Shown: piece by piece, positions 891-42,826 of the stretch
How positions within the stretch are numbered: the first letter of the stretch is position 1
Layout: each line of letters begins with the position of its first letter
Notes under the pieces: model-generated
The model's input: the letters and a program-made list of their open reading frames with translations, nothing else
Databases searched by the model: none
Told to the model about the DNA's origin: nothing
Assembly (NCBI GenBank): GCA_025927475.1
Contig: JAICLL010000005.1
Location: 21,219-85,218 of the forward strand
From: Pirellulales bacterium
GTDB taxonomy: Bacteria; Planctomycetota; Planctomycetia; Pirellulales; JAICIG01
Length of the DNA stretch: 64,000 bases
Reading direction: 5' to 3'
Program-made: the position numbers and the translations under genes

Positions 891-1460
891 CTAGATTTTT
901 TCGAGCAGGTAATCGTCGATCTCGACCGAGACGCCCTGTTGAATCAGGTTCACCGCGACCACCAGCCGGCATTTGCGGCGGCGCGAGACGACGGTGCCCT
1001 CGACTCCTTCCAGCGAGCCGCGGATCACCCGTACCCGGTCGCCTGGTTTGAGGCGGCTTTCGAGCGTCAGCGGCGCCTTGTATTCGATTAAGCGAGAAAT
1101 CTGCAACAGGTCTCGCGCCAATTCATCGGCGTTCTTCACCAGTAGCACCTGGGCGATCCGGTTGGTCGTCAGGCTGGTGTACCGCTCAGCTTCGTCACCA
1201 TACATGAAAAGGTAACTGGTGAAGAGCGGGATAAACGAGGTTCGCTTCCGGCCGCGCACGATGGCCGTCTTTTCGACCTGTGGCAAATAAAACGGGATGC
1301 GATAGCCCAGCAGGTCACGAGCCAAGCTCTTTTCCTGTCGAGCCCTGGTGTGCACCACCCACCAACGGCGGTCGAGCGAAGCGTCCGCGAGGTCCGGTTC
1401 TTGCCAGTTGACGAGCAACCTCTCGGGGAAACAGTCGGTTTCGGCAGTTAGACTCGGCAT
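891..1460 (-). CDS. NusG/RfaH-family transcription antiterminator paralog 1 (NGN + KOW)
   Basis: NGN-like RRWWVVHTRARQEKSLARDL..IPFYLPQV and KOW-like PGDRVRVIRGSLEGVEGTVV. The ATG at 1460 is preceded by AGGAAG. The ORF track extends to 1607, but that extension is not matched in paralog 2. Confidence 0.85.
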   Translation of the reverse strand: MPSLTAETDCFPERLLVNWQEPDLADASLDRRWWVVHTRARQEKSLARDLLGYRIPFYLPQVEKTAIVRGRKRTSFIPLFTSYLFMYGDEAERYTSLTTNRIAQVLLVKNADELARDLLQISRLIEYKAPLTLESRLKPGDRVRVIRGSLEGVEGTVVSRRRKCRLVVAVNLIQQGVSVEIDDYLLEKI

Positions 1461-1663
1461 GGGTCTTCCTTTTGATTCAGTGGGTGCAAGCGTTGCTGTC
1501 ATCCTCTCCTTTTGGAAACCACCCAAACATACTAAGCTGCGACGGCCGAATTGTGAAGCAAAATCCGGCTCATTTAGAAATAAAGATGGGCCGGGGCAGG
1601 CAGGCACGGGCGCCTCGTATTAGGCGACGGGCTGCAAAACTTGACGCACTCAAGCGGTAGTCA

Positions 1664-2788: not shown

Positions 2789-4126
2789 TTAAGCCTTACG
2801 AATTCGCCCGCGACCTTCCCGAACATGGCGGGTGGCATTCCGCGTATCGACCACCAGGCGCGAGTGCCGTACGATCTGCTCGTAATCATAGACTGAGTGG
2901 TCCGTGGCAATCAGCACACAGTCTTGGCTGTTGAGAAACTGAGGGGTCAGCTCTTGGCTGGCCATCTCGGGCACGTTGTGATGCCGCATCTGCGGCAGGT
3001 GGGGAATGTGAGGATCATTGTAGGTGACGATCGCTCCCCGCGCCCGCAGCAGGTCGAGCAGCTCGAACGAAGGGCTTTCGCGCGGGTCATCGACGTCTTT
3101 CTTATAGGCCATGCCCAAGAGACAAATCCGGCTGCCTCGCAAAGGCTTGCTCTGCTCGTTGAGAAACTCGGCAATCCGCCCGACCACATACTCGGGCATG
3201 CGCGTGTTTACTTCGCCAGCCAGTTCAATGAAGCGCGTGGTCAGACCGTGGCGGCGGGCCAGCCAAGTGAGATAAAACGGGTCAATCGGAATGCAATGCC
3301 CGCCCAGGCCGGGACCGGGGTAAAACGCCTGAAAGCCGAAGGGCTTGGTCTTGGCCGCTTCGATCACCTCCCAAACGTCGATGCCCATTCGGTCGTAGAG
3401 CGTCTTCAACTCGTTGACCAGCGCGATGTTGACCGCTCGGTAGGTGTTTTCCAAGATTTTGCAGGCCTCGGCAACTTCCATGCTCGAGACGGAAACGACC
3501 TTGACCACGGCGTGCCCATAGAGCGCCGCCGCCAATTGCAGGCTTTCTGGATCCGCACCGCCCACCACCTTGGGAATTCGCGCGGCCGAGTAATCGGCGT
3601 TGCCCGGATCTTCGCGTTCGGGGCTGTAGGCCAGCCAAAAGTCGCTGCCCAACCCGAAGCCGCTTTTTTGCAGAATCGGCAGCACCACGTCGCGCGTCGT
3701 CGTGGGATAGGTGGTGCTTTCTAGTACGACCAACTGCCCTGGTCGTAGGGCGGCGGCGATGGCCGAGGCCGTTCCCTCGACATAAGTGAGATCGGGGTCG
3801 CGGCTTTCGGTTAGGGGCGTCGGCACGCAGATCAGCAGGGCGTCTGCCTCGGCCAGTCGCCGCATGTCGGCGGTGGCCTCGAACCTGCCGCCCGCCAGCC
3901 ATTGCGCAACGGTGGCCGAGTCGATGTGCTTGATATAGCTGCGACCGGCCTGAAGCGACTCGACCTTCCGCGGATCGACGTCGAAACCGAGACACGAGAA
4001 GCCCGACTGCGTAAAGGCGTGAATCAGCGGCAGGCCGACATAGCCTAGCCCGATCACCCCCACACGGGCCGTCTTGTTCTTAATCGCCGCTTCCAACCGA
4101 CGCAACGTAGTGACGGTCGGACTCAC
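2789..4126 (-). CDS. nucleotide-sugar 6-dehydrogenase (UDP-glucose/GDP-mannose dehydrogenase family; WbpA/TviB-like)
   Basis: N-terminal Rossmann motif VGVIGLGYVGLP and catalytic-Cys motif GLGGHCIPIDP; 445 aa, typical length. Confidence 0.9.
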   Translation of the reverse strand: MSPTVTTLRRLEAAIKNKTARVGVIGLGYVGLPLIHAFTQSGFSCLGFDVDPRKVESLQAGRSYIKHIDSATVAQWLAGGRFEATADMRRLAEADALLICVPTPLTESRDPDLTYVEGTASAIAAALRPGQLVVLESTTYPTTTRDVVLPILQKSGFGLGSDFWLAYSPEREDPGNADYSAARIPKVVGGADPESLQLAAALYGHAVVKVVSVSSMEVAEACKILENTYRAVNIALVNELKTLYDRMGIDVWEVIEAAKTKPFGFQAFYPGPGLGGHCIPIDPFYLTWLARRHGLTTRFIELAGEVNTRMPEYVVGRIAEFLNEQSKPLRGSRICLLGMAYKKDVDDPRESPSFELLDLLRARGAIVTYNDPHIPHLPQMRHHNVPEMASQELTPQFLNSQDCVLIATDHSVYDYEQIVRHSRLVVDTRNATRHVREGRGRIRKA

Positions 4127-4547
4127 TGCCAGCTCCTGGTTTGAAAGCGGAAGAAGGTGCCTTGGTTTCGTCTGGAATGAACCTAGCCTGCGTTTCGTAG
4201 AGATCGCCGGTTTTGCGCGATCGCCCGACCGAAAGCAGCACTTGGATCATCTCGCCGGTAATCAACGAAATGCGGACGGCGATTTGCTTGCTCGACATCG
4301 GTTGGGTATGGGTCAGCCGCATTCCGCGGGTGGTGACGCTGTGCAGCACCACCGAGAAGGGCGGGCCGGGCAATGAGATTCCACCGGCCAGGTTACCCGC
4401 CAACTCGCCGTGCAGTGGAACAGCCGACGCGGCCAGCGAAAGCTCACTTTGCTTTCGGGCGGCCTGGCCGGGCGCAATTCTCCGCAGCAAATCGCCAAAC
4501 GTCGTGGGACGCTCTTGCATCGAGTCGGCCTCCGTGCCCGCCTTCAT
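4080..4547 (-). CDS. small conserved hypothetical protein S2, paralog of 1664..2050
   Basis: C-terminal two thirds align with S1 (GDLYETQARF motif). The upstream part of the 316-aa ORF overlaps the plus-strand NusG gene and crosses an AT-rich tract, so the ATG at 4547 (or 4520) is preferred. Its stop overlaps the dehydrogenase start. Confidence 0.55.
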   Translation of the reverse strand: MKAGTEADSMQERPTTFGDLLRRIAPGQAARKQSELSLAASAVPLHGELAGNLAGGISLPGPPFSVVLHSVTTRGMRLTHTQPMSSKQIAVRISLITGEMIQVLLSVGRSRKTGDLYETQARFIPDETKAPSSAFKPGAGSESDRHYVASVGSGD

Positions 4548-4795: not shown

Positions 4796-5404
4796 ATGCC
4801 GATTCGCGGCCCAGAACTCCAGTGCTTTCCCCACGACCTGCTGACGTGCGGCGGGATCGACGCAGTTGCGTCTGGCTTCGTCGACCTCGCCGCAGAGGGC
4901 GTTGCAGAAACTTGCCGGGCCGGCCGCCGCTGGTGGGTCGTGCATACCAAGGCCCGCCAGGAGAAAAGCGTCGCTCGCGAGCTGCTCGATCGAGAGATTC
5001 CCTATTTCTTGCCGCAAATTCCCAAAACATCGGTCATCCGGGGTCGCCGCCGCACTTCGTACATTCCGCTGTTCACCGGCTACGTGTTCGTTTATGGCAG
5101 CGAACGCGAACGCCACGAGAGTCTGACCACGAACCGCGTGGCCAATACCCTGCCGGTTAACAACGCCGATGAGCTCACGCGCGACCTCCTCCAAGTTTGG
5201 CGTCTGATCGAGCAGAACGCTCCGCTAACCGTCGAGGCTCGATTGCGCCCTGGCGACCGCGTACGCGTGCGTGGCGGGGCCCTGGCCGGGGTGGAAGGCA
5301 CGGTGCTCGACCGCCGCGGCAAGTGCCGCGTGCTCGTGGCCGTGCGCCTCCTCCAGCAAGGCGTGTCGATGGAGATCGACGACTTTCTGCTAGAGCCAAT
5401 CTGA
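4796..5404 (+). CDS. NusG/RfaH-family transcription antiterminator paralog 2 (NGN + KOW)
   Basis: RRWWVVHTKARQEKSVARELL..IPYFLPQI and PGDRVRVRGGALAGVEGTVL. It shares the N-terminal E-x-x-CFP-x-x-LL motif with paralog 1. Confidence 0.88.
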   Translation: MPIRGPELQCFPHDLLTCGGIDAVASGFVDLAAEGVAETCRAGRRWWVVHTKARQEKSVARELLDREIPYFLPQIPKTSVIRGRRRTSYIPLFTGYVFVYGSERERHESLTTNRVANTLPVNNADELTRDLLQVWRLIEQNAPLTVEARLRPGDRVRVRGGALAGVEGTVLDRRGKCRVLVAVRLLQQGVSMEIDDFLLEPI

Positions 5405-5462: not shown

Positions 5463-6356
5463 CTACGTCGCCGCTAGGGCGAGGTCGTTACGCGCGGCAA
5501 GCTTGCGCCGCCGTCGGGTGACCGCGGCCAGGCCGAGAGCGCCTGCGCCCCACATGAACATGGTAGCTGGCTCTGGCGCCTGTGTGGGAATGTTGCCGTT
5601 CGAGGCGCTCAAACCCGACGTGCCGGAAAGCGATCCTGGGGCGTAGCTGGGGGCCGTGTTCGAGGTCAAGAACAAGACTGGCGAATAGGAATTTGCGGCC
5701 AGCAAGTGATTGCCGAAAAAGTTGGTCCACGAGAACGTCGCCGCGCCGCCGCTGCTGGTGCCGCCGAGCGAAAGGACGCCGGTCGGGGCGGTGGTGGCGA
5801 CTCCCGAATTCGTAAAGGGCGCCGCTGCATTCAAGCTCTGCCCGCTCACCGAGGGATAGTAATACTGTTGGTTGTCAGGCGGCGTGCCCGTCGGCTGCGT
5901 GCCGATGTACGGGTGCGCGTTGGTGACCGCCGTATCATTGAACACGTAGTTGTTCAACCACCCACCCGACGAGTAAGGGTTCGAATAGCTGTTGACATTG
6001 AAGTTGGCGATTGATCCGTTACCGGCAGCCGGTGCCGTGTTGACCACTTCATAAAAGAAAACGAACGACGCAGCGCTGTCGGCCGTATTGCCGCCGCTGG
6101 CGTCAAGCACACCAGCCAGATCGCTACTGGTGAAACCGAGTTGGCTCAGCCAGTTGCCGCCGTCTGCGCCGGTGTTTTGGTAGACGGCGAAATCGACCAC
6201 GCCGCCAGCCGAGGAACCGGCGTCGGCGAACTCAGTCCAGCCGGTAAAACCCGGCTGAAACTGGGCATTCGCCTGACCACAGAGGGCTGCCCAAGCGGCG
6301 ACGACCAGCAACGCCAGGGCGCGTAGACTCAATAGATTCGATACCACAAAACGCAT
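5463..6356 (-). CDS. PEP-CTERM sorting-domain secreted protein 1 (exosortase substrate)
   Basis: C-terminus QAPEPATMFMWGAGALGLAAVTRRRRK (PEP motif + TM helix + Arg cluster) and an N-terminal signal peptide. The ATG at 6356 is preceded by AAGGAG at 8 nt. Confidence 0.9.
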   Translation of the reverse strand: MRFVVSNLLSLRALALLVVAAWAALCGQANAQFQPGFTGWTEFADAGSSAGGVVDFAVYQNTGADGGNWLSQLGFTSSDLAGVLDASGGNTADSAASFVFFYEVVNTAPAAGNGSIANFNVNSYSNPYSSGGWLNNYVFNDTAVTNAHPYIGTQPTGTPPDNQQYYYPSVSGQSLNAAAPFTNSGVATTAPTGVLSLGGTSSGGAATFSWTNFFGNHLLAANSYSPVLFLTSNTAPSYAPGSLSGTSGLSASNGNIPTQAPEPATMFMWGAGALGLAAVTRRRRKLAARNDLALAAT

Positions 6357-6444
6357 GGAGATACTCCTTCGATACATACCCGTTCAACTTGTCGAGAAAC
6401 TTGCCGAAAAACAGCGACGCCGAAAAACAGCGCCGCCGCCGCGT

Positions 6445-6900
6445 CTAGGCAAGGCGACAAGGTGGGCGCAAAAAATCGAAGGTCGGCGGCGTGGGCAAGG
6501 CGGCATTGGCCCGCTCCAGGCATGCGCCATTCGGCTCCAACGAGCCCGACGAAACTCCCGCCGACAAGACAACCGCCAAGGTTGGGCCGCCGGACGTAGC
6601 CGATGTGCCCGCACCCGACGCGCCCGAAATCGGGCTGGCCGGTTGATCGACCTGCGAAGGATCGGCCTTCCGCGGTTCGCCATCTTGATCGGGCGAAACA
6701 TCGTCGGCGGCATCCGAGCCGATTTTGCCAGCCAGGTTCGCCGCGCGGGCCGAGGGAGAGGCCAGTTCTTCGGGCAACACGAAGCCCGCCTGGGCCTCGC
6801 TGGCAGCCAAGCCGAACAGCGCGAGCGCCAAGGCAAAGCCCGCCAGACCGCGTAGCGGTAGGCCCGAATTTCGACAGAACGTGTTAAGGTGGACAATCAT
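6445..6900 (-). CDS. small secreted Ser/Gly-rich protein, family member B (tail FDFLRPPCRLA)
   Basis: Signal peptide LAGFALALALFGLAASEAQAG, an acidic stretch, an SGASGAGTSATSGG core, a single late Cys and a C-terminal LPTPPTFDFLRPP. It lies directly upstream of PEP-CTERM gene 1. Confidence 0.65.
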   Translation of the reverse strand: MIVHLNTFCRNSGLPLRGLAGFALALALFGLAASEAQAGFVLPEELASPSARAANLAGKIGSDAADDVSPDQDGEPRKADPSQVDQPASPISGASGAGTSATSGGPTLAVVLSAGVSSGSLEPNGACLERANAALPTPPTFDFLRPPCRLA

Positions 6901-6914
6901 GACGATTGCGAGTT

Positions 6915-6943
6915 ACTTTAAGCGGCTCCGGCAGCCGTGTCAA
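6915..6943 (-). promoter_or_regulatory. candidate sigma70-type promoter for family member B / PEP-CTERM 1
   Basis: On the minus strand, TTGACA (6943-6938), a 17-nt spacer and TAAAGT (6920-6915). The ATG at 6900 would leave a very short leader. Confidence 0.4.
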
Positions 6944-7179
6944 GCGCCCGGCGGGCATTCAACGCCGTTTGCCGGTCCCCACCGTTTGCCGGTCCCGTTT
7001 GCTTGCAAAAAACAGCCCCCCATCGGCTCGCCTGCGTCGCAAGCTTGGCCGGCTCAATGGTTTGCCGCAACACCCGAAGCATCAATCTTGGCTTATGCAA
7101 GCGCTGGCTGGCATTCGGGGGTCGGCATTCGGGGGTAATGCTTCCTCGGTTTTTACTTTTTGCACGTTGAATTCCAAGT

Positions 7180-7363
7180 CCTCTCTCCGCATTGTCCCAC
7201 CAATCTGGCTTGGTGGGTTTTCCGGCTGAAAAAGGCACGATGGCACGCGTACCCATTGGCAAAATCAGACATGCCTGACTGTGCAACGTCCGCCGGGCGC
7301 CAAGGCCCTCTCTCCCCGCATTCTCTCAAGCAACTGGCTTGGTGGGTTTTCCGGCGGAAAAAC
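7180..7363. repeat. two copies of a ~56-bp direct repeat in a 600-bp spacer
   Basis: 7180-7235 and 7308-7363 share CCTCTCTCC(C)CGCATT..CTGGCTTGGTGGGTTTTCCGGC.GAAAAA. Copy 1 contains the hairpin CCCACCAA-N6-TTGGTGGG followed by TTTT. Confidence 0.7.
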
Positions 7364-7500
7364 GAGCTTTGCCAACCGCGGCGAGATGCGTAATGGGACA
7401 TGTCCCCATGTGCATAGCCCGGATGATTCGTCAGCCCGCACGAACATCCGGCATGGTCCAGCAAGAGACGGAATGGTAATGTATTCCGCTGTCCGGCGCA

Positions 7501-24779: not shown

Positions 24780-25919
24780 TTAGATGATATCGGCGAACGA
24801 ATCTTCGACGCGGCGAAAGTACAAACAGCCCAAGACCAGCAGGGCAACCACGCCCAAGCTCGACCAGCGGAGCATCGGCCAGGGGATCGGGCCGCCGACC
24901 ACCGCCGCGCGGAACGAAGCCACCAGACCGGTGAGGGGGTTGAGCGCGAGCAGGGAAGAAGAGAAACCGGAGGTCAGTGGCCGGGGGTCAGGGGGCGGAG
25001 AGGGGTCGGAGGTCAGTGGCCGGGGGTCAGGGGGCGGAGAGGGGTCGGAGGTCAGAGGTCGGAGGTCAGGGGACGAAGACAACGCAGATTCGGCCCTGGC
25101 CTCGGGCCGCTGGCCTCCGACGTCCGCCGGAGTGTTCATGTAAATCGAGGGCGTGGCAAACATCCAAAGCTGCACCAGAAACGGAATCACGTATCGAAAG
25201 TCGCGGTAAGCCACGTTCAAGGCCGCCAACAGCGTGCCGACGCCTAAGGCCGCCAACGCGAACAGCGCCACCAGCACGGGCACGAGCAGCAGCCCCCAGG
25301 AGGGCGGCACGCGATACCAAATCATCAAGACCAGCAGCATGCTAAAGGCGACCGCAAAATCGACCAGCGCCGCCCCCACCGACGCGAAGGGAATCGCGAG
25401 TCGAGGAAAATAAATCTTGGTGATCAGCCGTTCGGAGCCGACCACGCTGTTGCCGGCGCTGGCGATGGCGGTGGCGAAAAACGTCCAGGGCAGCAGGCCG
25501 GCGAAGACGAACAACGGATAAGGCATTCCGCCGGAATCGACGTGGGCCATGCGGCCAAAGAAAATGCTGAAGACCACCATCATCATGGCCGGCTGCAAGA
25601 CCGCCCAGGCGGCGCCCAGCACCGTTTGCTTATAGCGGACCTTCACATCGCGCCACGCCAAAAAGTAGAGCAGCTCGCGATATTGCCACAGTTCTCGCGC
25701 GTTCACAAGCTGCCAGCCGCGGGGCGGGCGGATGATGGTGCGCGGCAGCGCATCCGGCCCCACGGCTTCCGGCTGGGCATGTGGCCCAGCCGCCCCCGGC
25801 TGGGTTTCACCGCCGAGGGCGGCGGTGCCACAAGGCGCTGAGGAGGCACCATCGAGCGCGGCGCCGCCCGTAGGCGCACCGCTTACCGTTTCCATCGTCT
25901 CTTCAAGATCAGTCGACAT
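24780..25919 (-). CDS. wzm: ABC-2 type polysaccharide exporter permease with in-frame proline-rich tandem-repeat insertion
   Basis: RELLYFLAWRDVKVRYKQTVLGAAWAVLQP is the ABC-2 signature, with 6 predicted TM helices. An insertion of ..DLRPLTSDPSPPPDPRPLTSDPSPPPDPRPLTSG.. sits before the LALNPLTG motif. Confidence 0.9.
   Translation of the reverse strand: MSTDLEETMETVSGAPTGGAALDGASSAPCGTAALGGETQPGAAGPHAQPEAVGPDALPRTIIRPPRGWQLVNARELWQYRELLYFLAWRDVKVRYKQTVLGAAWAVLQPAMMMVVFSIFFGRMAHVDSGGMPYPLFVFAGLLPWTFFATAIASAGNSVVGSERLITKIYFPRLAIPFASVGAALVDFAVAFSMLLVLMIWYRVPPSWGLLLVPVLVALFALAALGVGTLLAALNVAYRDFRYVIPFLVQLWMFATPSIYMNTPADVGGQRPEARAESALSSSPDLRPLTSDPSPPPDPRPLTSDPSPPPDPRPLTSGFSSSLLALNPLTGLVASFRAAVVGGPIPWPMLRWSSLGVVALLVLGCLYFRRVEDSFADII
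24969..25072. repeat. 39-bp tandem repeat (2 identical copies + partial third) inside wzm
   Basis: GGAGGTCAGTGGCCGGGGGTCAGGGGGCGGAGAGGGGTC at 24969-25007 and 25008-25046, with a degenerate third copy to 25072. 39 bp equals 13 codons, so the repeat is in frame. Confidence 0.9.
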
Positions 25920-25947
25920 TCACTACGCCCGGTGCCGGCAAAAAAGC

Positions 25948-25985
25948 GAGAATCCAAAATCCAAAATCGAAAACCCAAAATCGCC
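25948..25985. repeat. AT-shifted variant of the GATTCGGG-type repeat in the ligase-wzm spacer
   Basis: GAGAATCCAAAATCCAAAATCGAAAACCCAAAATCG; on the mRNA strand this reads as periodic GATTTTGG units followed by a T-run. Confidence 0.6.
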
Positions 25986-27299
25986 TCACCCGCCCCAGCG
26001 GGCGAAGACGCGGACAAACAAATAGATGGCGGCCAACATCGCCAGGCTCGCGCCTGCTACATGTTTGACCAATTGCTTGCCCAGGGGTTCTTCGGCCACT
26101 CCGATCGTCGGCTGCAATTGTCCCAAAAAACTGGCGGCCAGGCCGAGCGTGAGATAGGTCGGCAACACGTAGGGCCGCGAAATGGTGAGCATGCTCGCCG
26201 CGCAGCCGCTGACGACTGCCAAGAGATACGGCCGCAGCCGTGCCGACTCGGGATCGAGCTCGGTCAGACCGTCGGCCGGCAACTGGTAGAGCGCTCGGAT
26301 GGTATAAAAAAACAGGCCCAAAAAGATTGCTCCACCGAACAGCCCCAACTCCGCGAAGCAGTGGACATACGAGTTGTGGGCCACCAGCCCGGCTTCTTCG
26401 GCGTAGCGGTTTTGACCGATGCCAAACAGCGGCGAACTGCGTAACATGCCCAATCCCTGCGACCAAAGCTTGATGCGTTCTTGCCCGGTGCCCTGCTCCA
26501 TGGCGCCGCCGATATTCGCCTGCCTGCCTTTTGCCACGAGCAGCAGGGCCGGCAAGGTGATCGCTCCCACCAAAATCGCCTTGCGCCAGCCATAGCGGGC
26601 CTGAAACAGCAGTCCCAGCGCGGCCATTAGGGCCAGCAGCCCGCCGCGTGAACGCGTCAGCAGCAGCGCGTAGCCGCAGGCCGCCAGTACCGCCACCGCC
26701 ACGAGCCGCGCCGAGCCCCCTTGCTGGTCGGTCGCCAAATACGCGGCAATGACAATGCCGGCCACGGCGATCATCGACAGGTCGTTGGGATCGTTGAAGA
26801 TGCCCGTGCTCCGCAGCCGCGAAACAACGTAGACGATGCCGGTCTCCGGATCGACGTCGTGGTCCTGCAGCGTGGTCAGCGCCGGCAGGTCGATCCAGGC
26901 GTGATATTGCAACAGCGCCAGCCCGACCGTGACGGCGATGCAGGCCAACAGCCAGAACAGAAACGTGCGCAGCCGCCCGGGCGAATCGACGTTGGCCAAC
27001 AGCAGAAAGAAGTAGATCACCGTTTTCAAGAACTGCAGCGCGTCGAAGCGGGCGCTCCAGAGATCGAAGTGCGAGGCGTGCGAAAGGAAGATGGCCGCCA
27101 GCATGCCCAGCACACCCAGCGCAATAGGCCGCTCGATCAGCCGCCGCCACGAGAGCAACTCGGTCAACGACCGCAACGAAGTCAGCAAGCAGGCCAAGAT
27201 CAGGCATTCGTAGATCGGCACGGTCGCCAGGTCGGGCACAATCTCGCCCGGGCGGACAAACAACGTCGCATTGACCAAGAGGAACAGAACGAACGACAT
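25986..27299 (-). CDS. O-antigen ligase/polymerase-like (Wzy_C family) membrane protein
   Basis: About 10-12 TM helices and an STGIFNDPNDLSMI loop motif typical of O-antigen-ligase-like proteins. The position matches exosortase-associated O-glycosylation ligase genes. Confidence 0.82.
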   Translation of the reverse strand: MSFVLFLLVNATLFVRPGEIVPDLATVPIYECLILACLLTSLRSLTELLSWRRLIERPIALGVLGMLAAIFLSHASHFDLWSARFDALQFLKTVIYFFLLLANVDSPGRLRTFLFWLLACIAVTVGLALLQYHAWIDLPALTTLQDHDVDPETGIVYVVSRLRSTGIFNDPNDLSMIAVAGIVIAAYLATDQQGGSARLVAVAVLAACGYALLLTRSRGGLLALMAALGLLFQARYGWRKAILVGAITLPALLLVAKGRQANIGGAMEQGTGQERIKLWSQGLGMLRSSPLFGIGQNRYAEEAGLVAHNSYVHCFAELGLFGGAIFLGLFFYTIRALYQLPADGLTELDPESARLRPYLLAVVSGCAASMLTISRPYVLPTYLTLGLAASFLGQLQPTIGVAEEPLGKQLVKHVAGASLAMLAAIYLFVRVFARWGG

Positions 27300-27410
27300 G
27301 TGGTAGGGCGGGCACGCTGGGATTCAGGATTCGGGATTCAGGGAAGAAAGGCCGGCCACAAGGGCCGGAGCTACCTCGTCCGCCACTCGCCACTCGTCAC
27401 CCGCCACCGT
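27300..27410. repeat. composite repeat block in the spacer between sugar transferase and ligase-like gene
   Basis: GGGATTCAGGATTCGGGATTCAGGGAAGAAAGG (27319-27351) matches 9851-9883. GCCGGCCACAAGGGCCGGAGCTAC matches 11500-11523. This is followed by GCCACTCGCCACTCGTCACCCGCCACCG. Confidence 0.8.
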
Positions 27411-28269: not shown

Positions 28270-28914
28270 TCACTGCCCCGCCCGTTTCAGGGCGGGCAAA
28301 AATGCCTCTAAAAAACTGCGGCATGGGTCGCCCGACTCGGGGCTAGCCAACGACGCCAGTTGCATCTTCATCAGGAACGGTCGGGTGGCGTAGGCCAGCC
28401 GCGGATAGTCGGGGGCCGACCAGCCGCCGCCGTCGCTCAGCGAATGCCAGGCGGTCAGACGCCGCGGGCCAGCGGGATCGGGCTGGTCGGGTTCGAACGA
28501 CGTTTCCCAGAACTCGGCCGACGCCTTGCCCGGCAGCTCGATCTTTTTCCGCAGCGGCGAGGATTCCACGTGATAGCCCTGGCTCGAAAAACAGATTTCC
28601 GGCGTATGCACGGCGGTGGGGCCGGGCGGGCCGACCAGCAGCGTGAGCGTCACGGTGTCGCCGGTCTCGCGGTTGCGGTAGCTGCGGTAGACCGAGCCGG
28701 CGCACTGCAACATTTCGACTAAGTGGGGTTCGAGCGACAGCTCGGCTTGCACTTGCCAGGGGCCGAACTCGGACGGCGTATGCGCCAATTGGTCGACCGC
28801 CGCCCCCATCGAGTCGCCCCCCCGCAGCCAGGCCACCGCATCGGGCAAGTAGCCCGAGCCAAGCGTCAGGGCCAGGGCGAGAATCAGCAATACGTAACGG
28901 CGCGCGGGGGACAT
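28270..28914 (-). CDS. EpsI-family exosortase-associated protein
   Basis: N-terminal TM/signal, an HTPEICF motif, ~210 aa, and placement within an exosortase operon. Confidence 0.75.
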   Translation of the reverse strand: MSPARRYVLLILALALTLGSGYLPDAVAWLRGGDSMGAAVDQLAHTPSEFGPWQVQAELSLEPHLVEMLQCAGSVYRSYRNRETGDTVTLTLLVGPPGPTAVHTPEICFSSQGYHVESSPLRKKIELPGKASAEFWETSFEPDQPDPAGPRRLTAWHSLSDGGGWSAPDYPRLAYATRPFLMKMQLASLASPESGDPCRSFLEAFLPALKRAGQ

Positions 28915-28915
28915 A

Positions 28916-31900
28916 CTAGCGTACGTTGGCTTCGAGCTTCAGCAGTTCTTGGCGTTCGGCGGGCGGCAGCAGTTCGGCTGCCAGATTGCTTTGTCGGGCT
29001 TCTTCAAACACCTGCCGCGCGTCGTCGGTCTTACCCAGGTATTGCAGGCTCAACGCCAGGTGAAATCGGTGACGCGCGCTGGTGGGCGACAGCGCCAAAG
29101 CGTCTTTGAACAATGAAGCCGCTTCGTCGGCCTCGTGCTGTTGCAAAAGCACCCAGCCCTTGGTGTCGAGCAGCTCGGCCTGCAGGCCGCCGATCTGCAG
29201 CGCCCGCTCGATGTATTCCAGCGCCTCGCGCCGGCTGTCGGCCCGCTGGCTCAACAATAGCGCCATGTTGTTCAGCGACGCCACGTTCTTCGGATCGAGC
29301 GCCAACATCTGCCGCAGCAGGCGGATGGCTTCGTCGGTGTTGCCTTGCATGGCGTACATCGCCGAAGTGCCAAACAGCAACAGCCGGTCGTCGGGATGGT
29401 TGGCCAAGGCGGCGGTGATCAGCGGCTCGGCTCGGCGGCGGTCGTCTTCATCCACGGTGCCCACCGTGATGACCGCGGCCAAGGCCACCGCCAAGCGAGC
29501 CTCGGTGTCGTCCGCGGCCAGGCACAGCTCGATGCCTTCGTGTGCCCGGCCATGTCGCGCCAGCCAAATGGCCAACGGCACATAGGCTTTCGGCTGCAGG
29601 TTGAGGGCCTGGCGATAGGCGGTTTCGGCGGGTTGGGCCAGGTCGATCGAGGCATAGAGGCGGGCCACGCGGCCCAGCAATTCGGCGTGCTGCTGCGGCG
29701 ATTGCTGCGGCTGGCCCGCCAAAAACGCGGCGACCAGCGCCGGCGCTTGCTCGGTCTCGCCCTGTTCGGCCAGCAGACGCACCCGCAAGTTCAGCGTGCG
29801 GAAATGCGTGTTCTCTGGTTCCAACGCGGCGAGCCGATCGATCAGCTCGGCGGCTTTCTTGAGCGTGGCGGGCTGCTTCCGGGCCGATCGCAACAGGTGA
29901 TCGGCGAAGGCCGCCAGGTGAGCCGGCTCGGGCTGGTCGCGCTGCACCAGCAGCTCGAGCTGTTCGCGGGCCTTGCTCCATTGGCCCTGCGCTTCGTAGA
30001 GCCGGGCCAGCAACAACCGGTCGATGGTGGCGGCGCCGTTCGCGCTGCTGACGAGCGACTCGAGTACTTGCCGGGCGCGATCGCGAAAGCTCACTCCCCC
30101 GCGCCGCAGCAACAGAATTGCCTTCAGCCGCTGATCGGCGATCTCGGGCGCGCCGCCGCCCGAGCGATCGAGCAGCGTCCAAACCTCGTCCAGTTCGCTC
30201 TCGGCGTGTGCGCGCAGCGCCAGCAGGGTGGCCAGCATGCGCTCGGCGGCGCCTCCGCCCGGCTCGAGCTCGACCACGTGCCGGAGATATTGCTCGCTCC
30301 GTTGAGGATCGGTGCGGAAGAAAAAGTGGGCGGCCTGCAAGAGCACCGCCGCGCGATGGGGATTTCGCTCCACCGCCTCGAGAAACAAGGTGCGTGCGCG
30401 GTCGGCGTCGCCGAGCAAAGCATAACCTTGGGCCAGGAAGAAGGGCCGATCCTGATCGCTCAAAAGCGCACGATCGTCGATTTGCTTCAGCAACCCGCGG
30501 CCGGCTTCGAGCTGCTCCGTTTGATGATAGAAGGCCAGCAGCGCCGACCAGGTGCGCGGGTCGGACGTGGCCAGCTCCCACGCGCGGCGCAGTTCGGCTT
30601 CCGCTTCGACCAGGCGCGGCTCGCGATCGGGCCCCTCCGCGGGCAAGTCGACCGACAGCAACTGACCCAGCCGCATGTGGGGCAGAGCGTCGTCGGGCGC
30701 GCGAGCAGTCTCGCGGCGGGCGATTTCGATGGCCCGCACCAGGTTGCCTTGCCGCAGATCGGTGGCCATGGCTAGCGCCGCCAACTCGGGCGGCACGTCG
30801 GCGGCCTGCCGCAAGCGGTCGAGATAAGCGTCGGCCTCAGCGAGGCGGTTTTGCCGCAGCAGCAAACCGATCATTTCTTGATACACCGCCACGCGCCGCT
30901 CGCCCAACCGCAGGGCCTGGCCGTAGGCCTGAATGGCGGTCTCGTCATCGGGCTTGGCTTGCATCTGCGCCACACGCGCCTTCAGCAAGTGCGACGGGGG
31001 CCAATAGGGCCGCCGCGCTTCGAGCTCGCGTTGTAGTGTCCGCGCCTCGTCGATGCGCATGCGGCGCGCCGCGGCGTCGGTCAGGCCAGCCGCCTCGCCC
31101 AGCAAACACTGCGCACGATAAAACCGCCAGCCGGCCTGGGCATCGACCCGCGACGATGCCTCGAGCTGGTCTACCCGGCGACGAGCGTCGGCCACCTTGC
31201 CCGCATCCAGATCGAGTTCGACCAGCATTTGCAGCGGCAGTACATCTTCGGGATCTTCCTCGACGAGCTTTTCCAACTCGGCGCGAGCGGGCGCTTGCTT
31301 GCCGGCGGCCAAATCCAACAACGCCAGTCGATAGCGCACCGCTCGACGCTCAGGCACAGACAAACCGGCCAGGCCGCGAGACAATGCGGCGGCGGCTTCG
31401 TCTTCGCGATCGCGCCGATAGAGCAGGTCGGCTTCGAGCAGTAAGACGGCCAGTGACTGTCCTTGCTCGGCTCGCAGGCGGTCGAGCAGTCGGTCGGCCT
31501 TGGCGGCAGATCCGGACCGTTCATAGTCGAATGCCAGCCGGCCGGCCAGTCGGGGGGCCTCGAGCACTGCCGGCTCCAGGGCCTCAAACCGTTGTGCGGC
31601 CAACTCGGTCTGACCTCGGACTAATTCATATTCGGCGGCCAGCAGTTTGAGCAATGTGCTGTCGGGCAGCCGCTGCGACGCGCCGGCCAGCGATTGCTGA
31701 AACACGTGCCAGTCGCGTTTGGCCGGAGGCAGCATCACCTGCTGCCGCAGCCGGGCATCGACCAACGATTCCCAGCCGGCGGTCGATTGCGGATCGAGCG
31801 CTAGAGCCTCTTCATAATGCCGCAGCGCTTCGTCGAGCCAGCCCGCTTGCTCCCAGGCTTGGGCGGCAGCTAAGTGGGCCGCGACCTCGCGCGGCTGCAA

Positions 31901-33379
31901 CTCGGCGGCGTTTTGATAGGCCGCCGCAGCGTGGTCCCACATCCGCAGTTGCGCGTAGCACTGACCGAGCTGCATCCAAACTCGATGGTTACCCGCCGCC
32001 CGGTTGGCGGTGATCGCTCCGCCCTGTCGCAATTCCAACACCCGCTTCAGCAGTGGCACGGCTTCGCCATACTGCGCGCGGCCGGTGGCGCTGTCTGCCC
32101 GCAGTGAGTACAGCGCGGCCAGCCACTGCGTTTGCTCCGCACCGAACAAATGCAGGATCTGCCGTTCCATCGGGTCGATCAGCGCTTGAGCCTCATCAAA
32201 CTGTCGCTCCCGCAGATAGGCCGATGCCAGTTGGGCTTGCAACCGCATGTCGTCGCCGCCGGTCGCCTTCAACCCCGACCGCCAGGCGTCCATGGCCTGA
32301 GGCAGGTCGTCCTCGGCCTCGTAGGTTTGCCCGAGCAGCGAATAGCCCTGCGGCTCGGCCGGCCTGAGGCGAATCAATCGCTGGAAGCAGTCGCGAGCGG
32401 TTTGCCATTGCTGCTGGTCTTGGGCGTGCAGACCCGCCGCCATCGCCAGCGAGGCGTTGGTGTGGTTTCGATCGGCGACCTCAGCCGAGCGCAAGTCGTC
32501 GTTGGCGCCGGGTAGATCGAACTCGTTTCGATACAGATAACGAGCCAGCAGCGCCTGCACGTTTGCCCGCCCGGCAGCCACCAGCCGGTCCATCACTTCG
32601 TCGGCCTGGAGAGCCCGCTTCTCGGGCGATGGCTGCCGCAACTCGGTGCGATAAAACCGAGCCAGGTGTGTGGCCACCTCCACGTCGGCCGGATCGGCCT
32701 CGTGGGCCGCGACCAATGCCCTGTGTACTTTTTCGTCGGAACTTTCGTTTTTGACATGATAGCGTGCGTGCAATGCCAATGCTTTTACGCGCAGGGCGTC
32801 CGTGTCCTGCGGCTGCTGGCCGAGCAGCTCATCGGCCCTTTGTAAGGCGGCTTCGTGGTCGCCCAGTTCGAGCAACAGCTTCAGGTGGCGGCGGCGCCAC
32901 TGCAGGTCGTTGGGCGCCAGCGAGATGGCGACCGCGTAAAGCTGCACCGCCCGCTGCTTATCGGCGCGCGTCGTGGCGGCTTTGCCAAAATCTTCGGCCA
33001 ACCGCAGCCGGGCTTCGGTATCATCGGGGCGTAGGCGAAGGAACTGGCGTAGCTCGTGGGCGGCTTGCTGCCAATCTTCGGCGCTCTCACGTTCGGCCGC
33101 TCGCTCGAGCAGGGCGTTGGCGTTGCGCTGCACCTGGTAGGCGTGCCAGAAATAGCCGGCCGGCGCCAAGATGACCACCAGCACGCCCGTGCGCACCAAC
33201 CGGCGCGTATTGACTTGCCAGCGCCGCCGCCGTTCGGCCACACGCCGTTTCGACTCGGTGTCACGCGCGCCGCCGACCGATGCGGTCGTGGAAGGCGAAG
33301 CGGGGTTATCGGTGGAAACCGGCATTTGTAGCAGTAATAGAACTCGTGAGAAGTCTGGCGGTAAGCGTGAGAACGGCAA
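28916..33379 (-). CDS. giant TPR-repeat protein (1487 aa) with N-terminal TM anchor
   Basis: Dozens of 34-aa A/L/Y-rich repeats (..AL..Y..A..L.P..) and one TM near residue 70 (VLVVILAPAGYFW). Functionally analogous to PrsT-type TPR proteins of PEP-CTERM loci, but much longer. Confidence 0.85.
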   Translation of the reverse strand: MPFSRLPPDFSRVLLLLQMPVSTDNPASPSTTASVGGARDTESKRRVAERRRRWQVNTRRLVRTGVLVVILAPAGYFWHAYQVQRNANALLERAAERESAEDWQQAAHELRQFLRLRPDDTEARLRLAEDFGKAATTRADKQRAVQLYAVAISLAPNDLQWRRRHLKLLLELGDHEAALQRADELLGQQPQDTDALRVKALALHARYHVKNESSDEKVHRALVAAHEADPADVEVATHLARFYRTELRQPSPEKRALQADEVMDRLVAAGRANVQALLARYLYRNEFDLPGANDDLRSAEVADRNHTNASLAMAAGLHAQDQQQWQTARDCFQRLIRLRPAEPQGYSLLGQTYEAEDDLPQAMDAWRSGLKATGGDDMRLQAQLASAYLRERQFDEAQALIDPMERQILHLFGAEQTQWLAALYSLRADSATGRAQYGEAVPLLKRVLELRQGGAITANRAAGNHRVWMQLGQCYAQLRMWDHAAAAYQNAAELQPREVAAHLAAAQAWEQAGWLDEALRHYEEALALDPQSTAGWESLVDARLRQQVMLPPAKRDWHVFQQSLAGASQRLPDSTLLKLLAAEYELVRGQTELAAQRFEALEPAVLEAPRLAGRLAFDYERSGSAAKADRLLDRLRAEQGQSLAVLLLEADLLYRRDREDEAAAALSRGLAGLSVPERRAVRYRLALLDLAAGKQAPARAELEKLVEEDPEDVLPLQMLVELDLDAGKVADARRRVDQLEASSRVDAQAGWRFYRAQCLLGEAAGLTDAAARRMRIDEARTLQRELEARRPYWPPSHLLKARVAQMQAKPDDETAIQAYGQALRLGERRVAVYQEMIGLLLRQNRLAEADAYLDRLRQAADVPPELAALAMATDLRQGNLVRAIEIARRETARAPDDALPHMRLGQLLSVDLPAEGPDREPRLVEAEAELRRAWELATSDPRTWSALLAFYHQTEQLEAGRGLLKQIDDRALLSDQDRPFFLAQGYALLGDADRARTLFLEAVERNPHRAAVLLQAAHFFFRTDPQRSEQYLRHVVELEPGGGAAERMLATLLALRAHAESELDEVWTLLDRSGGGAPEIADQRLKAILLLRRGGVSFRDRARQVLESLVSSANGAATIDRLLLARLYEAQGQWSKAREQLELLVQRDQPEPAHLAAFADHLLRSARKQPATLKKAAELIDRLAALEPENTHFRTLNLRVRLLAEQGETEQAPALVAAFLAGQPQQSPQQHAELLGRVARLYASIDLAQPAETAYRQALNLQPKAYVPLAIWLARHGRAHEGIELCLAADDTEARLAVALAAVITVGTVDEDDRRRAEPLITAALANHPDDRLLLFGTSAMYAMQGNTDEAIRLLRQMLALDPKNVASLNNMALLLSQRADSRREALEYIERALQIGGLQAELLDTKGWVLLQQHEADEAASLFKDALALSPTSARHRFHLALSLQYLGKTDDARQVFEEARQSNLAAELLPPAERQELLKLEANVR

Positions 33380-33382
33380 CGT

Positions 33383-35650
33383 CTAGAGGTCAATCACCGT
33401 GCCGTCCGGTGGCGGCAGCAAGGTCGGTGCGCTGGCGCCTGCATCGCCCGCCCCGGCTTGGGCATAGCGTTCCCATCCATAGCCGTAGCCGCCGTACTTG
33501 TAAGCCCAGGATCGCGCCGGCAGGCCGTTGATGACCGTGCCCAGCACCCGCGCGCCCGACGACATCAGCCGCTCGCAAGCCAAGCGGAATTGCGGGCCGC
33601 GGCTGACGTCGCGCATCGCGCACACCAGCGTGCCCTCGGCGGCCCCGGCCAGCACCAGCGCCTCGCTGGCCGCAAGCACAGGCGGCAAGTCGATGACGAT
33701 GTAGCGATAGTGCTGCCGCAGCTCGGCCAAGGCCGCTTGCATCGTGCCGTCCTGCAGCAGAGCATGCGGAGTGAACTTCAATTGCCCGCTCGGCAGAAAA
33801 TGCAACCAGGGACTGTCGGTGGCCACCACCGGATCGGCCACGGCGCAATGGCCTGCCAGCACATCGGTCAGGCCGGGCGAGATGTCGCGATCGAAAATCT
33901 CGTGCAGGCTGGGGCAGCGCATGTCGCCGTCGATGATCAAGGTCGGCTTGCGCGTGGCCTTTGCGAGGCTCGCCCCCAACGACGAGGCCAGGCTGCTCTT
34001 GCCCTCGCGGCTGATCGCACTGGTGATCGCCAAGGTTTGCAGATCGCGTGTTTCCGGCGACACGGTCAGCCCCACCCGCAAGGCCTCGATGCTCTCTTGA
34101 AACGTCAGTTGGTCGCGCATAAACCGCTCTTCGGAACGCTGGCCGGCCATCGCCGCCCGTGTCGGCAACGCCGTGATTTCGCCCAAGACAGGCAAATTAA
34201 CCTCTTGCACCATCTGCCGCACGTCATGAATCCGGCGTTGCCGTTGCTCCCAAAATACCGCCAGCGCGAACGGAAAAAATAAGCCCGCCACGGCCGCCGC
34301 TCCCAGCCGCTTCCAGGGAATCAACTCGCGCGGTTTGGTCGGCACCGTCGCGCGTTGCATGGGGCTGGCCCGCAGCGGCGCGCCCATTTCCGTCTGCAAC
34401 ATCACGATCCGGTCGGCGATTTTTTCGAAGACTTCCTGGGCGCGGGCCAGCTCGTCGCGGGCGAACTCAAGATCGACCGTTTTGTCGCCGAGCTTCTCGA
34501 TCCGCTCGCGCTGCGTCGCAACCCGGTCTTGCCACAGCTTCTGCATCAGCCGCTGGTTTTCGATATTGGCCTTCAGTTCCGCAATCGCCTCTTGCTGCCT
34601 GCCGCGCCGCGCCGACTGCAATTGCTCGACCAGTTGAGGCCGCAATTCGCCCGCCGTTTGCTTGATCGTCTCTTCCAAATCGTCGAGTTGCTGTTGCATG
34701 CGGACGGCCATCGAGTCGTTCTCGAGATTCGATCGCCGCCGATGATCGCGCAGCATGGCGGCCCGCATCCGCTGCTGGGCTTTCAGTCGCTGCATTTCCG
34801 GGTGAGACTCCAGGGCCGCCGTCAGCTCGCTTGGCGAAATTTCGAAGTCTTCGCTGTCCGCCGCTTCTTCGGCGACCTTCAGCCGCGCCTCGAGCACCGC
34901 GATCTCGACCTCGGCCGCGGTGCGGCGTTCTTCTAACCCCGACAGCGGATTGGCCGGCATGATGACCTGCTGGTCGTGGTGCATCAGGCTCGGGTCGTCT
35001 TCGGTGGCGTGCTTGGTGATGAGCCGCACCTTCTCCTGAAAGTGCCGAACTTCCTCGCCGCGATGCGATTTCTCCTCTTTGAGCAACTCGATGATCCGCT
35101 CCGCCTCTTTGCCGCGCATCGCCGTGTGCAGAGACAGGTAGGCGTCCATCACCGCGTTGGCCACGCTGGCCGCCGCTTGCGGATCTTGCGCCTTGAAGTT
35201 GATCTCGCAAAGCTCCGAACGACCGACATACGTGACTTTCAACCCCTGCTTGAGCCAATCCAGCGGCGCGTCGGAATGCTTGATTTCGGGCAGGCTGGCG
35301 ATTACCGGGTCGGCCACCACTTTCGAAAGGCAGATCGGGCTGCGAATGGTCTGGATTTGCGTCTCAGCGAAAACACTCGATTGATTTGCCGACTGAAACG
35401 CGACGACCGGCGCCTGATCCTTGATCTCGAGCCAGGCCGACGCTTCATAGCTCGGAACGAACAGCGCCAGCGAGGCCGCCGCGGCGATCGAACCCAGCAC
35501 TAAACCGCCCAGCGTGCATTGCCACCACCAGCGCCGATAGACGGCCCACAGATCGGCCAGGCCCATGCCCGACGCCGGCCGGTGCGGCTGCGAAGAGCCG
35601 CGCGATCCGGCGGCTGCCCCGTGCGACCCCAACGGTTCCTTGTTAGGCAT
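33383..35650 (-). CDS. polysaccharide co-polymerase / BY-tyrosine kinase fusion (Wzz domain + CpsD-like ATPase)
   Basis: Two TMs flank a long coiled-coil periplasmic region. Walker A-like ITSAISREGKSS, A' LIIDGDMR, Walker B YIVIDLPP, and a C-terminal Tyr cluster YKYGGYGYGWERY. Confidence 0.9.
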   Translation of the reverse strand: MPNKEPLGSHGAAAGSRGSSQPHRPASGMGLADLWAVYRRWWWQCTLGGLVLGSIAAAASLALFVPSYEASAWLEIKDQAPVVAFQSANQSSVFAETQIQTIRSPICLSKVVADPVIASLPEIKHSDAPLDWLKQGLKVTYVGRSELCEINFKAQDPQAAASVANAVMDAYLSLHTAMRGKEAERIIELLKEEKSHRGEEVRHFQEKVRLITKHATEDDPSLMHHDQQVIMPANPLSGLEERRTAAEVEIAVLEARLKVAEEAADSEDFEISPSELTAALESHPEMQRLKAQQRMRAAMLRDHRRRSNLENDSMAVRMQQQLDDLEETIKQTAGELRPQLVEQLQSARRGRQQEAIAELKANIENQRLMQKLWQDRVATQRERIEKLGDKTVDLEFARDELARAQEVFEKIADRIVMLQTEMGAPLRASPMQRATVPTKPRELIPWKRLGAAAVAGLFFPFALAVFWEQRQRRIHDVRQMVQEVNLPVLGEITALPTRAAMAGQRSEERFMRDQLTFQESIEALRVGLTVSPETRDLQTLAITSAISREGKSSLASSLGASLAKATRKPTLIIDGDMRCPSLHEIFDRDISPGLTDVLAGHCAVADPVVATDSPWLHFLPSGQLKFTPHALLQDGTMQAALAELRQHYRYIVIDLPPVLAASEALVLAGAAEGTLVCAMRDVSRGPQFRLACERLMSSGARVLGTVINGLPARSWAYKYGGYGYGWERYAQAGAGDAGASAPTLLPPPDGTVIDL

Positions 35651-42741: not shown

Positions 42742-42826
42742 CGAGTCATCCTCCTAGTCTAAAATAAAAAGGGAAAGCTGAACTCACAGGCCGCACGTCG
42801 AAGCGACATGCGCGCAGGAACACAGT

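Follow-up and report, generated by a model that had tools for sequence, protein, structure and literature searches.

Three small genes and their family

The window examined here, a 64,000-nucleotide stretch of a Pirellulales genome (assembly GCA_025927475.1, contig JAICLL010000005.1, positions 21,219 to 85,218), is in its entirety an exosortase/exopolysaccharide (EPS) locus. On its minus strand it encodes three small proteins with a signal peptide at one end and a short motif around the residues L-R-P-P at the other, which we term LRPP-tail proteins: S1 (6445-6900; 151 amino acids, aa), S2 (2273-2692; 139 aa counted from the ATG at 2692) and S3 (42827-43270; 147 aa). Their tails are LPTPPTFDFLRPPCRLA, LPPSPFFDHLRPPQA (also LRLPPSPFFDHLRPPQA) and LDSVFHPPRGES (also ..EPRVLRDALDSVFHPPRGES, reading ..SVFHPPR), respectively. 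All three open reading frames (ORFs) lie where a preliminary description, made from the letters of the sequence, had placed them. S1 and S3 are each followed by a gene for a PEP-CTERM protein on the same strand (5463-6356, with the ORF open up to 6377, and 41884-42741, respectively). On sequence comparison the three proteins belong to a real, previously unmodelled planctomycete family, and from the gene neighbourhoods we infer that each member is dedicated to one exosortase cargo protein, namely the product of the next gene downstream.

Eight relatives of S1 are present in the database (62-66% identity), annotated as 'hypothetical protein' or unnamed. An ortholog resides in a Pirellulales metagenome-assembled genome (MAG; locus L001), and the order of genes common to this locus and the window comprises a family 2 glycosyltransferase (GT2), S1, a PEP-CTERM protein, a NusG paralog, a 153-aa protein, UDP-glucose dehydrogenase and S2. 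The two S1 genes differ at 35, 30 and 60 first, second and third codon positions, respectively, and their final 60 codons contain 21 synonymous vs. 4 non-synonymous changes. Both the antisense and the alternative frames are interrupted by stops in the L001 ortholog, and S2 and S3 exhibit the same codon-position pattern as S1. The antisense ORF at 6355-6855 on the plus strand, which the preliminary description had named as a possible competitor, is therefore not the conserved frame, and this ORF as well as the overlapping one at 6384-6896 on the minus strand are artefacts of G+C-rich DNA. That S1-type ORFs are not genes but chance ORFs in such DNA, or that an antisense frame is the real one, as the presence of overlapping ORFs in several frames might suggest, has practically no likelihood left and is refuted by the synonymous and third-position excess, the stops in other frames of the ortholog, the retained synteny and the occurrence of the same motif in about 78 protein clusters.

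S1 consists of the parts that had been noted for it at the outset. A predicted Sec-type signal peptide (aa 1-38; 6787-6900) ends in ..ASEAQA, with predicted cleavage between ..EAQA and GFVLP, and contains the sole helix of an AlphaFold model (aa 16-31). Further downstream are an acidic segment (aa 61-88; 29% Asp/Glu), a putatively disordered core (aa 89-122; 6535-6636) in which Ser, Gly, Thr and Ala account for 71% of the residues and which is modelled at a predicted local distance difference test score (pLDDT) of about 57 without secondary structure, and the conserved C-terminal tail (aa 125-151; 6448-6528), G-A-C-L-E-R-A-N-A-A-L-P-T-P-P-T-F-D-F-L-R-P-P-C-R-L-A, with the cysteines Cys127 and Cys148. 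A single late cysteine had also been put forward as a shared feature. This did not hold for the family, as the column concerned is occupied by Cys in only 14 of the 92 sequences aligned below; an intermolecular disulfide formed by this residue was rejected on the same grounds.

Pairwise BLASTP comparisons among S1, S2 and S3 are weak (E values from 0.001 to 0.4), and the comparison was therefore moved to profiles. Alignment of ortholog profiles with hhalign gave a probability of 92% for S1 and S2 over the tail and of 95% for S2 and S3 over the full length. With hidden Markov models (HMMs) built in each case without the subfamily of the protein in question, the full-length scores amount to 77 bits for S1, 82 bits for S2 and 31-34 bits for S3; when only the last 45 residues are considered, S1 and S2 are still found with 35 and 57 bits, respectively, and S3 is not detected. 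The earlier proposal that all three proteins are of the same type thus stands for S1 and S2, which by these comparisons are securely homologous beyond signal peptide and low complexity, and needs qualification for S3, which aligns at full length only. We regard S3 as a divergent family member on the basis of its overall architecture, its gene context and two bridging sequences, P0086 (..LFMPRPPTDDIFHPPR; ..KLFMPRPPTDDIFHPPR) and P0036 (..RLAEREKLP..SIFHPPR).

An exhaustive search of 1.84 billion representative proteins with a profile of the S1, S2 and S3 groups retrieved 79 clusters (representatives) at E ≤ 1e-3, one of which is a spurious repeat protein. All other hits comprise 115-283 aa with a match that reaches the C-terminus, and the size of the family is thus about 78 clusters at 50% identity. 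All confirmed members stem from Planctomycetota MAGs or unlabelled metagenome contigs and appear in their sources as 'hypothetical protein' or without any name. In the window and in the loci described below, a family HMM separates members (at least 45 bits) from all other ORFs (at most 16 bits), S1 reaching 98 bits.

Both ends of the protein are conserved family-wide, as column counts from an alignment of 92 sequences illustrate; for the residues that precede the tail, conservation is confined to subfamilies. At the signal-peptide site, Ala is found at position -3 in 71 and at position -1 in 88 sequences. The residue at +1 is Gly (70/92) or Ser (17/92), followed by three hydrophobic residues and then usually Pro or Ser. 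An acidic variable stretch and a Ser/Gly/Thr-rich stretch lead from there to the C-terminal motif G-x-hydrophobic-x-E-x-x-x-L-x-L-P-x-(P/S)-P-x-x-D-x-L-R-P-P-(R/Q/C/K), which can be summarized as L-P-x-P-P-x-x-D-x-L-R-P-P-R with an end varying as [RH]-P-P-[RQKC]. In S1 numbering, L135 is present in 70 sequences, P136 in 79, P139 in 76, D142 in 64, L144 in 75 and R145 in 72, while P146 and P147 are invariant (92/92) and followed by Arg, Gln, Cys or Lys. In most members the motif is located 1-4 residues from the end of the chain; counted from the P-P pair, no more than eight residues follow in 89 of the 92 sequences (usually 2-4) and 11-12 in the other three, none of these ends being hydrophobic.

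The mature proteins have a length of 98-130 aa (median 111), consist to 52% of Ser, Gly, Thr, Ala and Pro, contain 3% aromatic residues and are net acidic in 90% of the members. A 25-aa window with at least 60% Ser, Gly and Thr occurs in 63% of them. When the 92-sequence alignment was supplied to AlphaFold2, S1 was modelled with a helix for the signal peptide only and a mean pLDDT of 63 (range 54-73). Based on the lack of secondary structure in this model and on the low-complexity, low-aromatic composition, the mature protein is predicted to be an intrinsically disordered chain that carries a short conserved motif at either end. By inspection and in the alignment columns, the family exhibits the A-x-A site of Sec/signal peptidase I substrates and no L-x-x-C lipobox, such that export and cleavage of the signal peptide are probable.

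In agreement with the initial impression that these proteins match no named domain, scanning 83 members individually against Pfam-A and NCBIfam did not reveal any family-wide match, the yield being one stray hit per library at E of about 0.005, and a search of the family profile against the Protein Data Bank returned only artefacts caused by artificial Ser/Gly linkers. Several other assignments were considered and rejected. A lipoprotein is incompatible with the missing lipobox and a UpxZ-like cytoplasmic regulator with the presence of a signal peptide. Neither are the small proteins PEP-CTERM substrates themselves, as had been noted before: they lack both a transmembrane helix and a basic tail, and S1, S2 and S3 do not match the PEP-CTERM models TIGR02595 and PF07589 at E ≤ 1.

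Pairing with exosortase cargo

According to the preliminary description, the next gene on the same strand encodes a PEP-CTERM exosortase substrate in two of the three cases, and for the window this is correct. The S1 partner passes the cut-offs marginally (PF07589, 20.8 vs. 20.7 bits; TIGR02595, 17.1 vs. 16 bits); its ortholog in L001 also passes that of TIGR02595, with 18.3 bits. Its sorting signal APEPATMFMWGAGALGLAAVTRRRRK, encoded at about 5502-5579, has the tripartite layout typical of such signals, i.e., a P-E-P motif, a transmembrane helix of about 14 residues and a basic cluster at the C-terminus (PMC1569441). The likely start of this gene is the ATG at 6356, located 88 nt behind S1 and preceded at a distance of 7 nt by GAAGGAG (6364-6370), a strong ribosome-binding site just as had been remarked. 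The S3 partner is an XDD4-family exosortase-dependent surface protein (NF045504, 69.3 bits vs. a cut-off of 40; 86.2 bits for the ortholog in locus L002) with the sorting signal VPEPTSLTLW..RRKKR.

To survey the neighbourhoods, loci were gathered by exact-protein look-up, by scanning based on subfamilies and with degenerate DNA patterns for the tail, and all ORFs were scored with the family HMM. Scanning with a single subfamily led to four confirmed loci among 55 pattern matches, confirmation being based on tblastn with a single sequence. The degenerate patterns, which require a fixed choice of Leu and Arg codons, had a low yield of true loci for this reason: loci L009-L016, L018-L020, L022, L026 and L028-L033 proved to be chance matches from high-G+C genomes and were discarded after HMM scoring, and L027 was the L001 contig again. 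The same kind of pattern led to a 164-aa ORF in a gammaproteobacterial MAG (L025, 2084-2578) with a signal peptide, a middle part rich in His, Cys and Met and the end ..VDLPDSPLFDFLRPPTRA. Its family HMM score of 31.5 bits is biased by the motif that the DNA pattern imposes, and no PEP-CTERM gene is found beside it; the match may be due to chance or may hint at the tail outside of the Planctomycetota.

For the survey, a PEP-CTERM-type signal was defined as P-E-[P/A/G] followed by a hydrophobic helix and an Arg/Lys cluster. A gene with such a signal is next on the same strand in 19 of the 21 loci for which downstream sequence is available, with one further, ambiguous case (L052), and conserved homologs beside PEP-CTERM genes thus occur in related as well as in distant genomes. 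The gap does not exceed about 600 nt and is usually below 200 nt, and the small gene is located upstream of the cargo gene in every pair. In L052, a 68-aa ORF (at about 930-1140) is located behind the family gene and ahead of the next large one. Its product hardly exceeds the sum of a signal peptide, the residues T-P-E-I-S-P, a hydrophobic helix and a terminal RGRR, and looks like a minimal PEP-CTERM-like protein.

The only one of the 21 loci without a following PEP-CTERM gene is that of S2 in the window. The count of two pairs in three is nevertheless an underestimate with regard to the family, since the S2 ortholog in L001 is followed by a PepA-like PEP-CTERM gene (L001 6454-7560, to be compared with about 2050-2273 in the window). 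This gene was not detected in the window by tblastn; it has either been lost there or been gained by the L001 MAG, and due to its absence S2 directly abuts a gene for a 128-aa protein.

The cargo is of diverse types (XDD4, choice-of-anchor-C-like, PepA-like and unnamed), and no similarity between the subfamilies was found by BLAST for the cargo cores, i.e., after removal of signal peptide and sorting signal. Cognate pairs are kept at the same time: the gene behind the S1-type gene encodes an ortholog of the S1 partner both in L001 (84% identical) and in L051 (39% identical), an ortholog of the XDD4 partner follows the S3 ortholog in L002 as well as in L003, and S1-type proteins that share only 34% identity retain the same cargo family with cargo cores that are 39% identical.

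A separate observation concerns the sorting signals of the partners. Nearly all of them contain P-E-[P/A/G]-x5-W, that is, a Trp six residues after the motif, with VPEA or VPEG in several cases; the sites inspected were those at 5502-5579 and about 41950-42030 in the window and those in loci L001, L002, L005-L008, L017, L021, L024, L039, L045, L047, L048 and L051. The Trp is absent from a PEP-CTERM protein of locus L005 (16996-17985) that has no small partner. This signature may mark the signal subtype of this exosortase clade.

By genomic association, the LRPP-tail family is a component of the exosortase system. The exosortase of the window (35643-36758, minus strand) scores 137.7 bits with TIGR02602 (cut-off 105.55), and the XrtA and XrtD models stay under their cut-offs, so that no named subtype can be assigned. 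Also present are a tyrosine autokinase (33383-35650), a 1487-aa TPR protein (28916-33379), an EpsI-like protein (28270-28914) and two UpxY/RfaH-like NusG paralogs, the first convergent with the S1 partner gene (4796-5404, plus strand), the second at 891-1607 (minus strand). The latter two score 83.6 and 79.9 bits with NF033644, which is below the cut-off of 100, and are above the cut-off with PF02357. In three loci from distant MAGs (L005, L006 and L024), the pair is divergent from an operon for the same set of machinery proteins, namely a UpxY-like NusG paralog, exosortase, tyrosine kinase and a giant TPR protein, so that exosortase and family gene are no more than about 3 kb apart; in the window, exosortase and family genes share the same 64-kb locus. 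Homologs of the UpxY-like NusG paralog flank the LRPP-tail pair in these three loci and in L001. A reverse survey that started from the exosortase recovered only the MAG of L001. In L048, a regulator with FHA and GerE (LuxR-type) domains is encoded directly upstream of the pair (903-1535).

Upstream of S1, a putative promoter motif, TTGACA-17-TAAAGT (6915-6943, minus strand), matches the sigma-70 consensus at 10 of 12 positions and is located 15 nt before the start codon. Small and cargo genes are separated by putative RNA hairpins. A G+C-rich hairpin with a 13-bp stem and a subsequent UUUUU run lies directly after the S1 stop (6407-6440, minus strand); the fold of the 121-nt stretch has a z score of -2.5, and the element is possibly an attenuator or stabilizes the transcript ahead of the partner gene. 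A stronger, terminator-like hairpin overlaps the S3 stop and is followed by CCCUUUUUAUUUU (42760-42835, minus strand). It has a folding energy of -38.5 kcal/mol and a z score of -4.0, and none of 200 shuffled sequences equals it. In L002 its stem is kept and the U-run is not; the orthologous spacers of L001 and L021 contain hairpins as well, with partial conservation. Judged from sequence, such hairpins could attenuate read-through into the cargo gene or stabilize the upstream message.

Two repeats precede S1. The 600-nt spacer between the GT2 gene and S1 (6901-7500) harbours a 29-nt direct repeat with 97% identity (7205-7233 and 7334-7362), with a small hairpin inside it (CCCACCAA..TTGGTGGG, read on the minus strand). 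L001 lacks this spacer, its GT2 and S1 genes being separated by a mere 17 nt, and the spacer may therefore be an insertion or else a regulatory leader of local origin. Immediately ahead of the promoter-like site, the 15-mer CCGTTTGCCGGTCCC is present as an exact tandem duplicate with a spacing of 17 nt (6965-6996).

Possible roles of the LRPP-tail proteins

Proteins that carry a secretion signal, are predicted to be disordered, are encoded ahead of diverse cargo in stable cognate pairs and are linked to exosortase genes point to a cargo-dedicated accessory. The data favour a cargo-specific partner over a general one on account of the three paralogs in the one locus, the unrelated cargo cores and the retained cognate pairing, in line with the dedicated partnership suggested early on. 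The choice among the roles that had been offered, i.e., chaperone, glycan acceptor, processing cofactor or anchor, is not decisively narrowed by this. We give a probability of roughly 0.4 to the view that the LRPP-tail protein is a cargo-specific periplasmic adaptor or holdase in which the subfamily-specific part recognizes its own cargo and the motifs shared by the family contact shared machinery. This would fit the conservation pattern, in which both ends are maintained family-wide and the pre-tail segment within subfamilies, with a linker that may vary freely. In the original PEP-CTERM paper, an adaptor function was proposed for the TPR proteins of such loci (PMC1569441).

Physical binding, docking target and direction of effect are what we infer in the following scheme. 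After Sec export and cleavage behind A-x-A, a mature chain of about 111 aa would result that is acidic, intrinsically disordered and delimited by the two family-wide ends, the N-terminus with Gly or Ser plus three hydrophobic residues and the Pro-rich C-terminal motif of about 25 aa. The subfamily-specific segment, possibly together with an N-terminal strand, would bind the cognate PEP-CTERM protein while the latter is still tethered in the inner membrane, and the LRPP-tail protein would fold upon binding. Via the tail, the complex would then attach to some conserved part of the apparatus for exosortase sorting and EPS export. This target is a guess, with the outer-membrane exporter, the giant TPR protein, the exosortase and its EpsI-like partner as candidate readers.

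Several findings weigh against an adaptor or holdase. The hairpins between small and cargo genes could indicate that the two are transcribed separately or that the small protein is made in large excess, and a structural role would fit this at least as well. Adjacency to cargo is not obligatory, given that S2 has no cargo gene next to it in the window, and the PEP-CTERM gene of L005 without the Trp residue described above manages without a small partner gene. Finally, the distance of 1-4 residues between the tail and a variable C-terminus argues against recognition of the free carboxylate and identifies no other reader.

Comparison with described systems yields likenesses of architecture rather than of sequence. 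Exosortase/EPS loci are known to encode accessory proteins without an assigned biochemical role that are presumed to help the cargo, such as EpsI-family, PrsT-type TPR and CrtB-associated proteins (PMC1569441; PMC12188702). LRPP-tail proteins resemble them in residing in such loci, the window itself containing exosortase, EpsI-like and 1487-aa TPR protein, but are small, disordered, present as multiple paralogs and tied to cargo genes instead of the exosortase gene; with no NCBIfam or Pfam match among the 83 members, a sequence relationship does not exist. A precedent for the adaptor or holdase design is FapA, a small, secreted and largely disordered chaperone that serves as accessory protein in the functional-amyloid operon fap of Pseudomonas, which also encodes the subunits of the surface fibre, and that slows fibrillation of FapC (bioRxiv 10.1101/2023.03.14.530334; 10.1101/2023.07.18.549541). 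Here, the likeness comprises size (about 124 aa for mature FapA vs. 98-130 aa) and disorder and is one of function and architecture only; CsgC and CsgE of the curli system can be named beside FapA for comparison. The fap operon begins with fapA and the subunit genes come later, an order that would correspond to the small gene preceding the cargo gene. On the other hand, the cargo of LRPP-tail proteins bears an exosortase sorting signal and is not known as amyloid, and neither the L-R-P-P tail nor the N-terminal motif of Gly plus hydrophobic residues has a described counterpart in FapA. For the latter motif, TapA offers an analogy. Encoded upstream of the fibre subunit in the tapA-sipW-tasA operon of Bacillus subtilis, this accessory protein engages the subunit via a conserved strand at its mature N-terminus. 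It differs in that its host is Gram-positive and has no exosortase and in being larger and partly folded.

The conserved mature N-terminus can also be read in another way. Exosortase has been proposed to possess a sortase-like Cys/Arg/His triad (PMC1569441), and the attachment target of PEP-CTERM proteins is still open (PMC12188702). LRPP-tail proteins might thus be covalent partners or anchor subunits onto which the cleaved cargo is transferred in a sortase-like manner, e.g., at the N-terminal amine of Gly or Ser; in a variant, they would be glycosylated, mucin-like stalks within a surface structure that the Pro-rich tail fixes to envelope or EPS. The abundance of Gly (70/92) and Ser (17/92) at +1 together with the hydrophobic triplet exceeds, in our judgement, what signal peptidase needs, although either residue is common at ordinary signal-peptidase sites. 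The Ser/Gly/Thr-rich core in a locus full of glycosyltransferases would suit a glycosylated stalk, even if a window of this composition is weak in about one third of the members. The hairpins behind the small genes are compatible with higher expression of the first gene, a situation encountered with major structural subunits. A general acceptor should occur once per genome beside the exosortase and not as cargo-linked paralogs, an objection that leaves a cargo-specific covalent partner unaffected. Overall, we consider covalent attachment or anchoring unlikely. Its most explicit version, in which the LRPP-tail protein is the missing second substrate of the planctomycete exosortase, receives its own PEP-CTERM cargo by transpeptidation on the N-terminal Gly or Ser of a disordered, probably glycosylated chain, and uses the Pro-rich tail to bring the conjugate across the outer envelope or to anchor it there, is very doubtful. 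If true, it would amount to a two-gene module of cargo plus stalk and to the first defined acceptor for any exosortase.

Alternatively, LRPP-tail proteins could be independent proteins of the extracellular matrix, merely co-expressed with PEP-CTERM proteins as part of the same matrix programme, with the tail as a new C-terminal signal for export or retention. Conservation is indeed strongest in a short motif very close to the C-terminus, and in this they resemble secreted proteins with PEP-CTERM, LPXTG, GlyGly-CTERM and MYXO-CTERM signals, likewise from organisms with sortase-like enzymes. Unlike in these, however, the tripartite layout is missing, neither a transmembrane helix nor a basic cluster following the motif. 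The solitary S2 of the window and the terminator-like hairpins between small and cargo genes agree with independence, and so would the possible relative with the same tail in the gammaproteobacterial MAG (L025), a match with a biased score as outlined above. Order and adjacency (19-20 of 21 loci, small gene first) and the retention of cognate pairs exceed what co-regulation needs. An independent matrix protein therefore appears rather improbable to us.

A role in regulation or timing, with a secreted inhibitor or signal that reports or gates cargo and EPS production, e.g., via a periplasmic sensor and, indirectly, UpxY-like antiterminators, is highly improbable. UpxY-like NusG paralogs adjoin the pair in the window, L001, L005, L006 and L024, an FHA/GerE regulator precedes it in L048 and a hybrid histidine kinase is encoded in L001. 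Several paralogs tied to different cargo fit a single circuit poorly, however, and no sensor partner is conserved beside the pairs. In Bacteroides capsule loci, factors of the UpxY type normally act on the leader of their own operon, and their proximity thus needs no link to the small protein.

Exosortase/PEP-CTERM sorting, predicted in 2006, occurs in a wide range of environmental bacteria and is connected with EPS, biofilms and flocs. The LRPP-tail family behaves like an additional, lineage-restricted component of this known system and is not categorically new; its pairing with cargo points to a missing accessory part. Because steps after the exosortase cut, including crossing of the outer membrane, are still open (PMC12188702), the near-constant upstream position, the retained cognate cargo and the two conserved short motifs provide a genetic and biochemical handle on post-cleavage sorting. 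Furthermore, a new model can be built from the present alignments for the annotation of planctomycete genomes, where the genes are currently 'hypothetical' or uncalled.

Other features of the locus

In addition to the genes mentioned so far, the window encodes many glycosyltransferases, an XrtA-associated FemAB-family protein and an asparagine synthase with a score of 735 bits on the XrtA/PEP-CTERM amidotransferase model, to which it is related without reaching the cut-off of 817. A scan of the window against Rfam gave no match.

A second unassigned paralogous family is represented by proteins of 155 and 128 aa (4083-4547 and 1664-2050, both minus strand) with about 31% mutual identity. Both copies have a UpxY-like NusG paralog as a neighbour, a different one in each case. 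The family is also conserved in the related MAG (L001, 4185-4646 and 7557-8036), a further member is located after the S1-type pair in L051 (1982-2497, plus strand), and Pfam and NCBIfam contain no matching model. These proteins may be partners of the antiterminators.

An ORF with low G+C content at third codon positions (25909-27393) was rejected as a wrong frame; the real gene at this place (25986-27299) encodes, as judged by sequence, an O-antigen-polymerase-like membrane protein. A further gene (24780-25919, minus strand) resembles ABC-transporter permeases by the same kind of judgement and contains an internal tandem peptide repeat, PDPRPLTSDPSPP, of which about three copies are inserted amid otherwise membrane-protein sequence.

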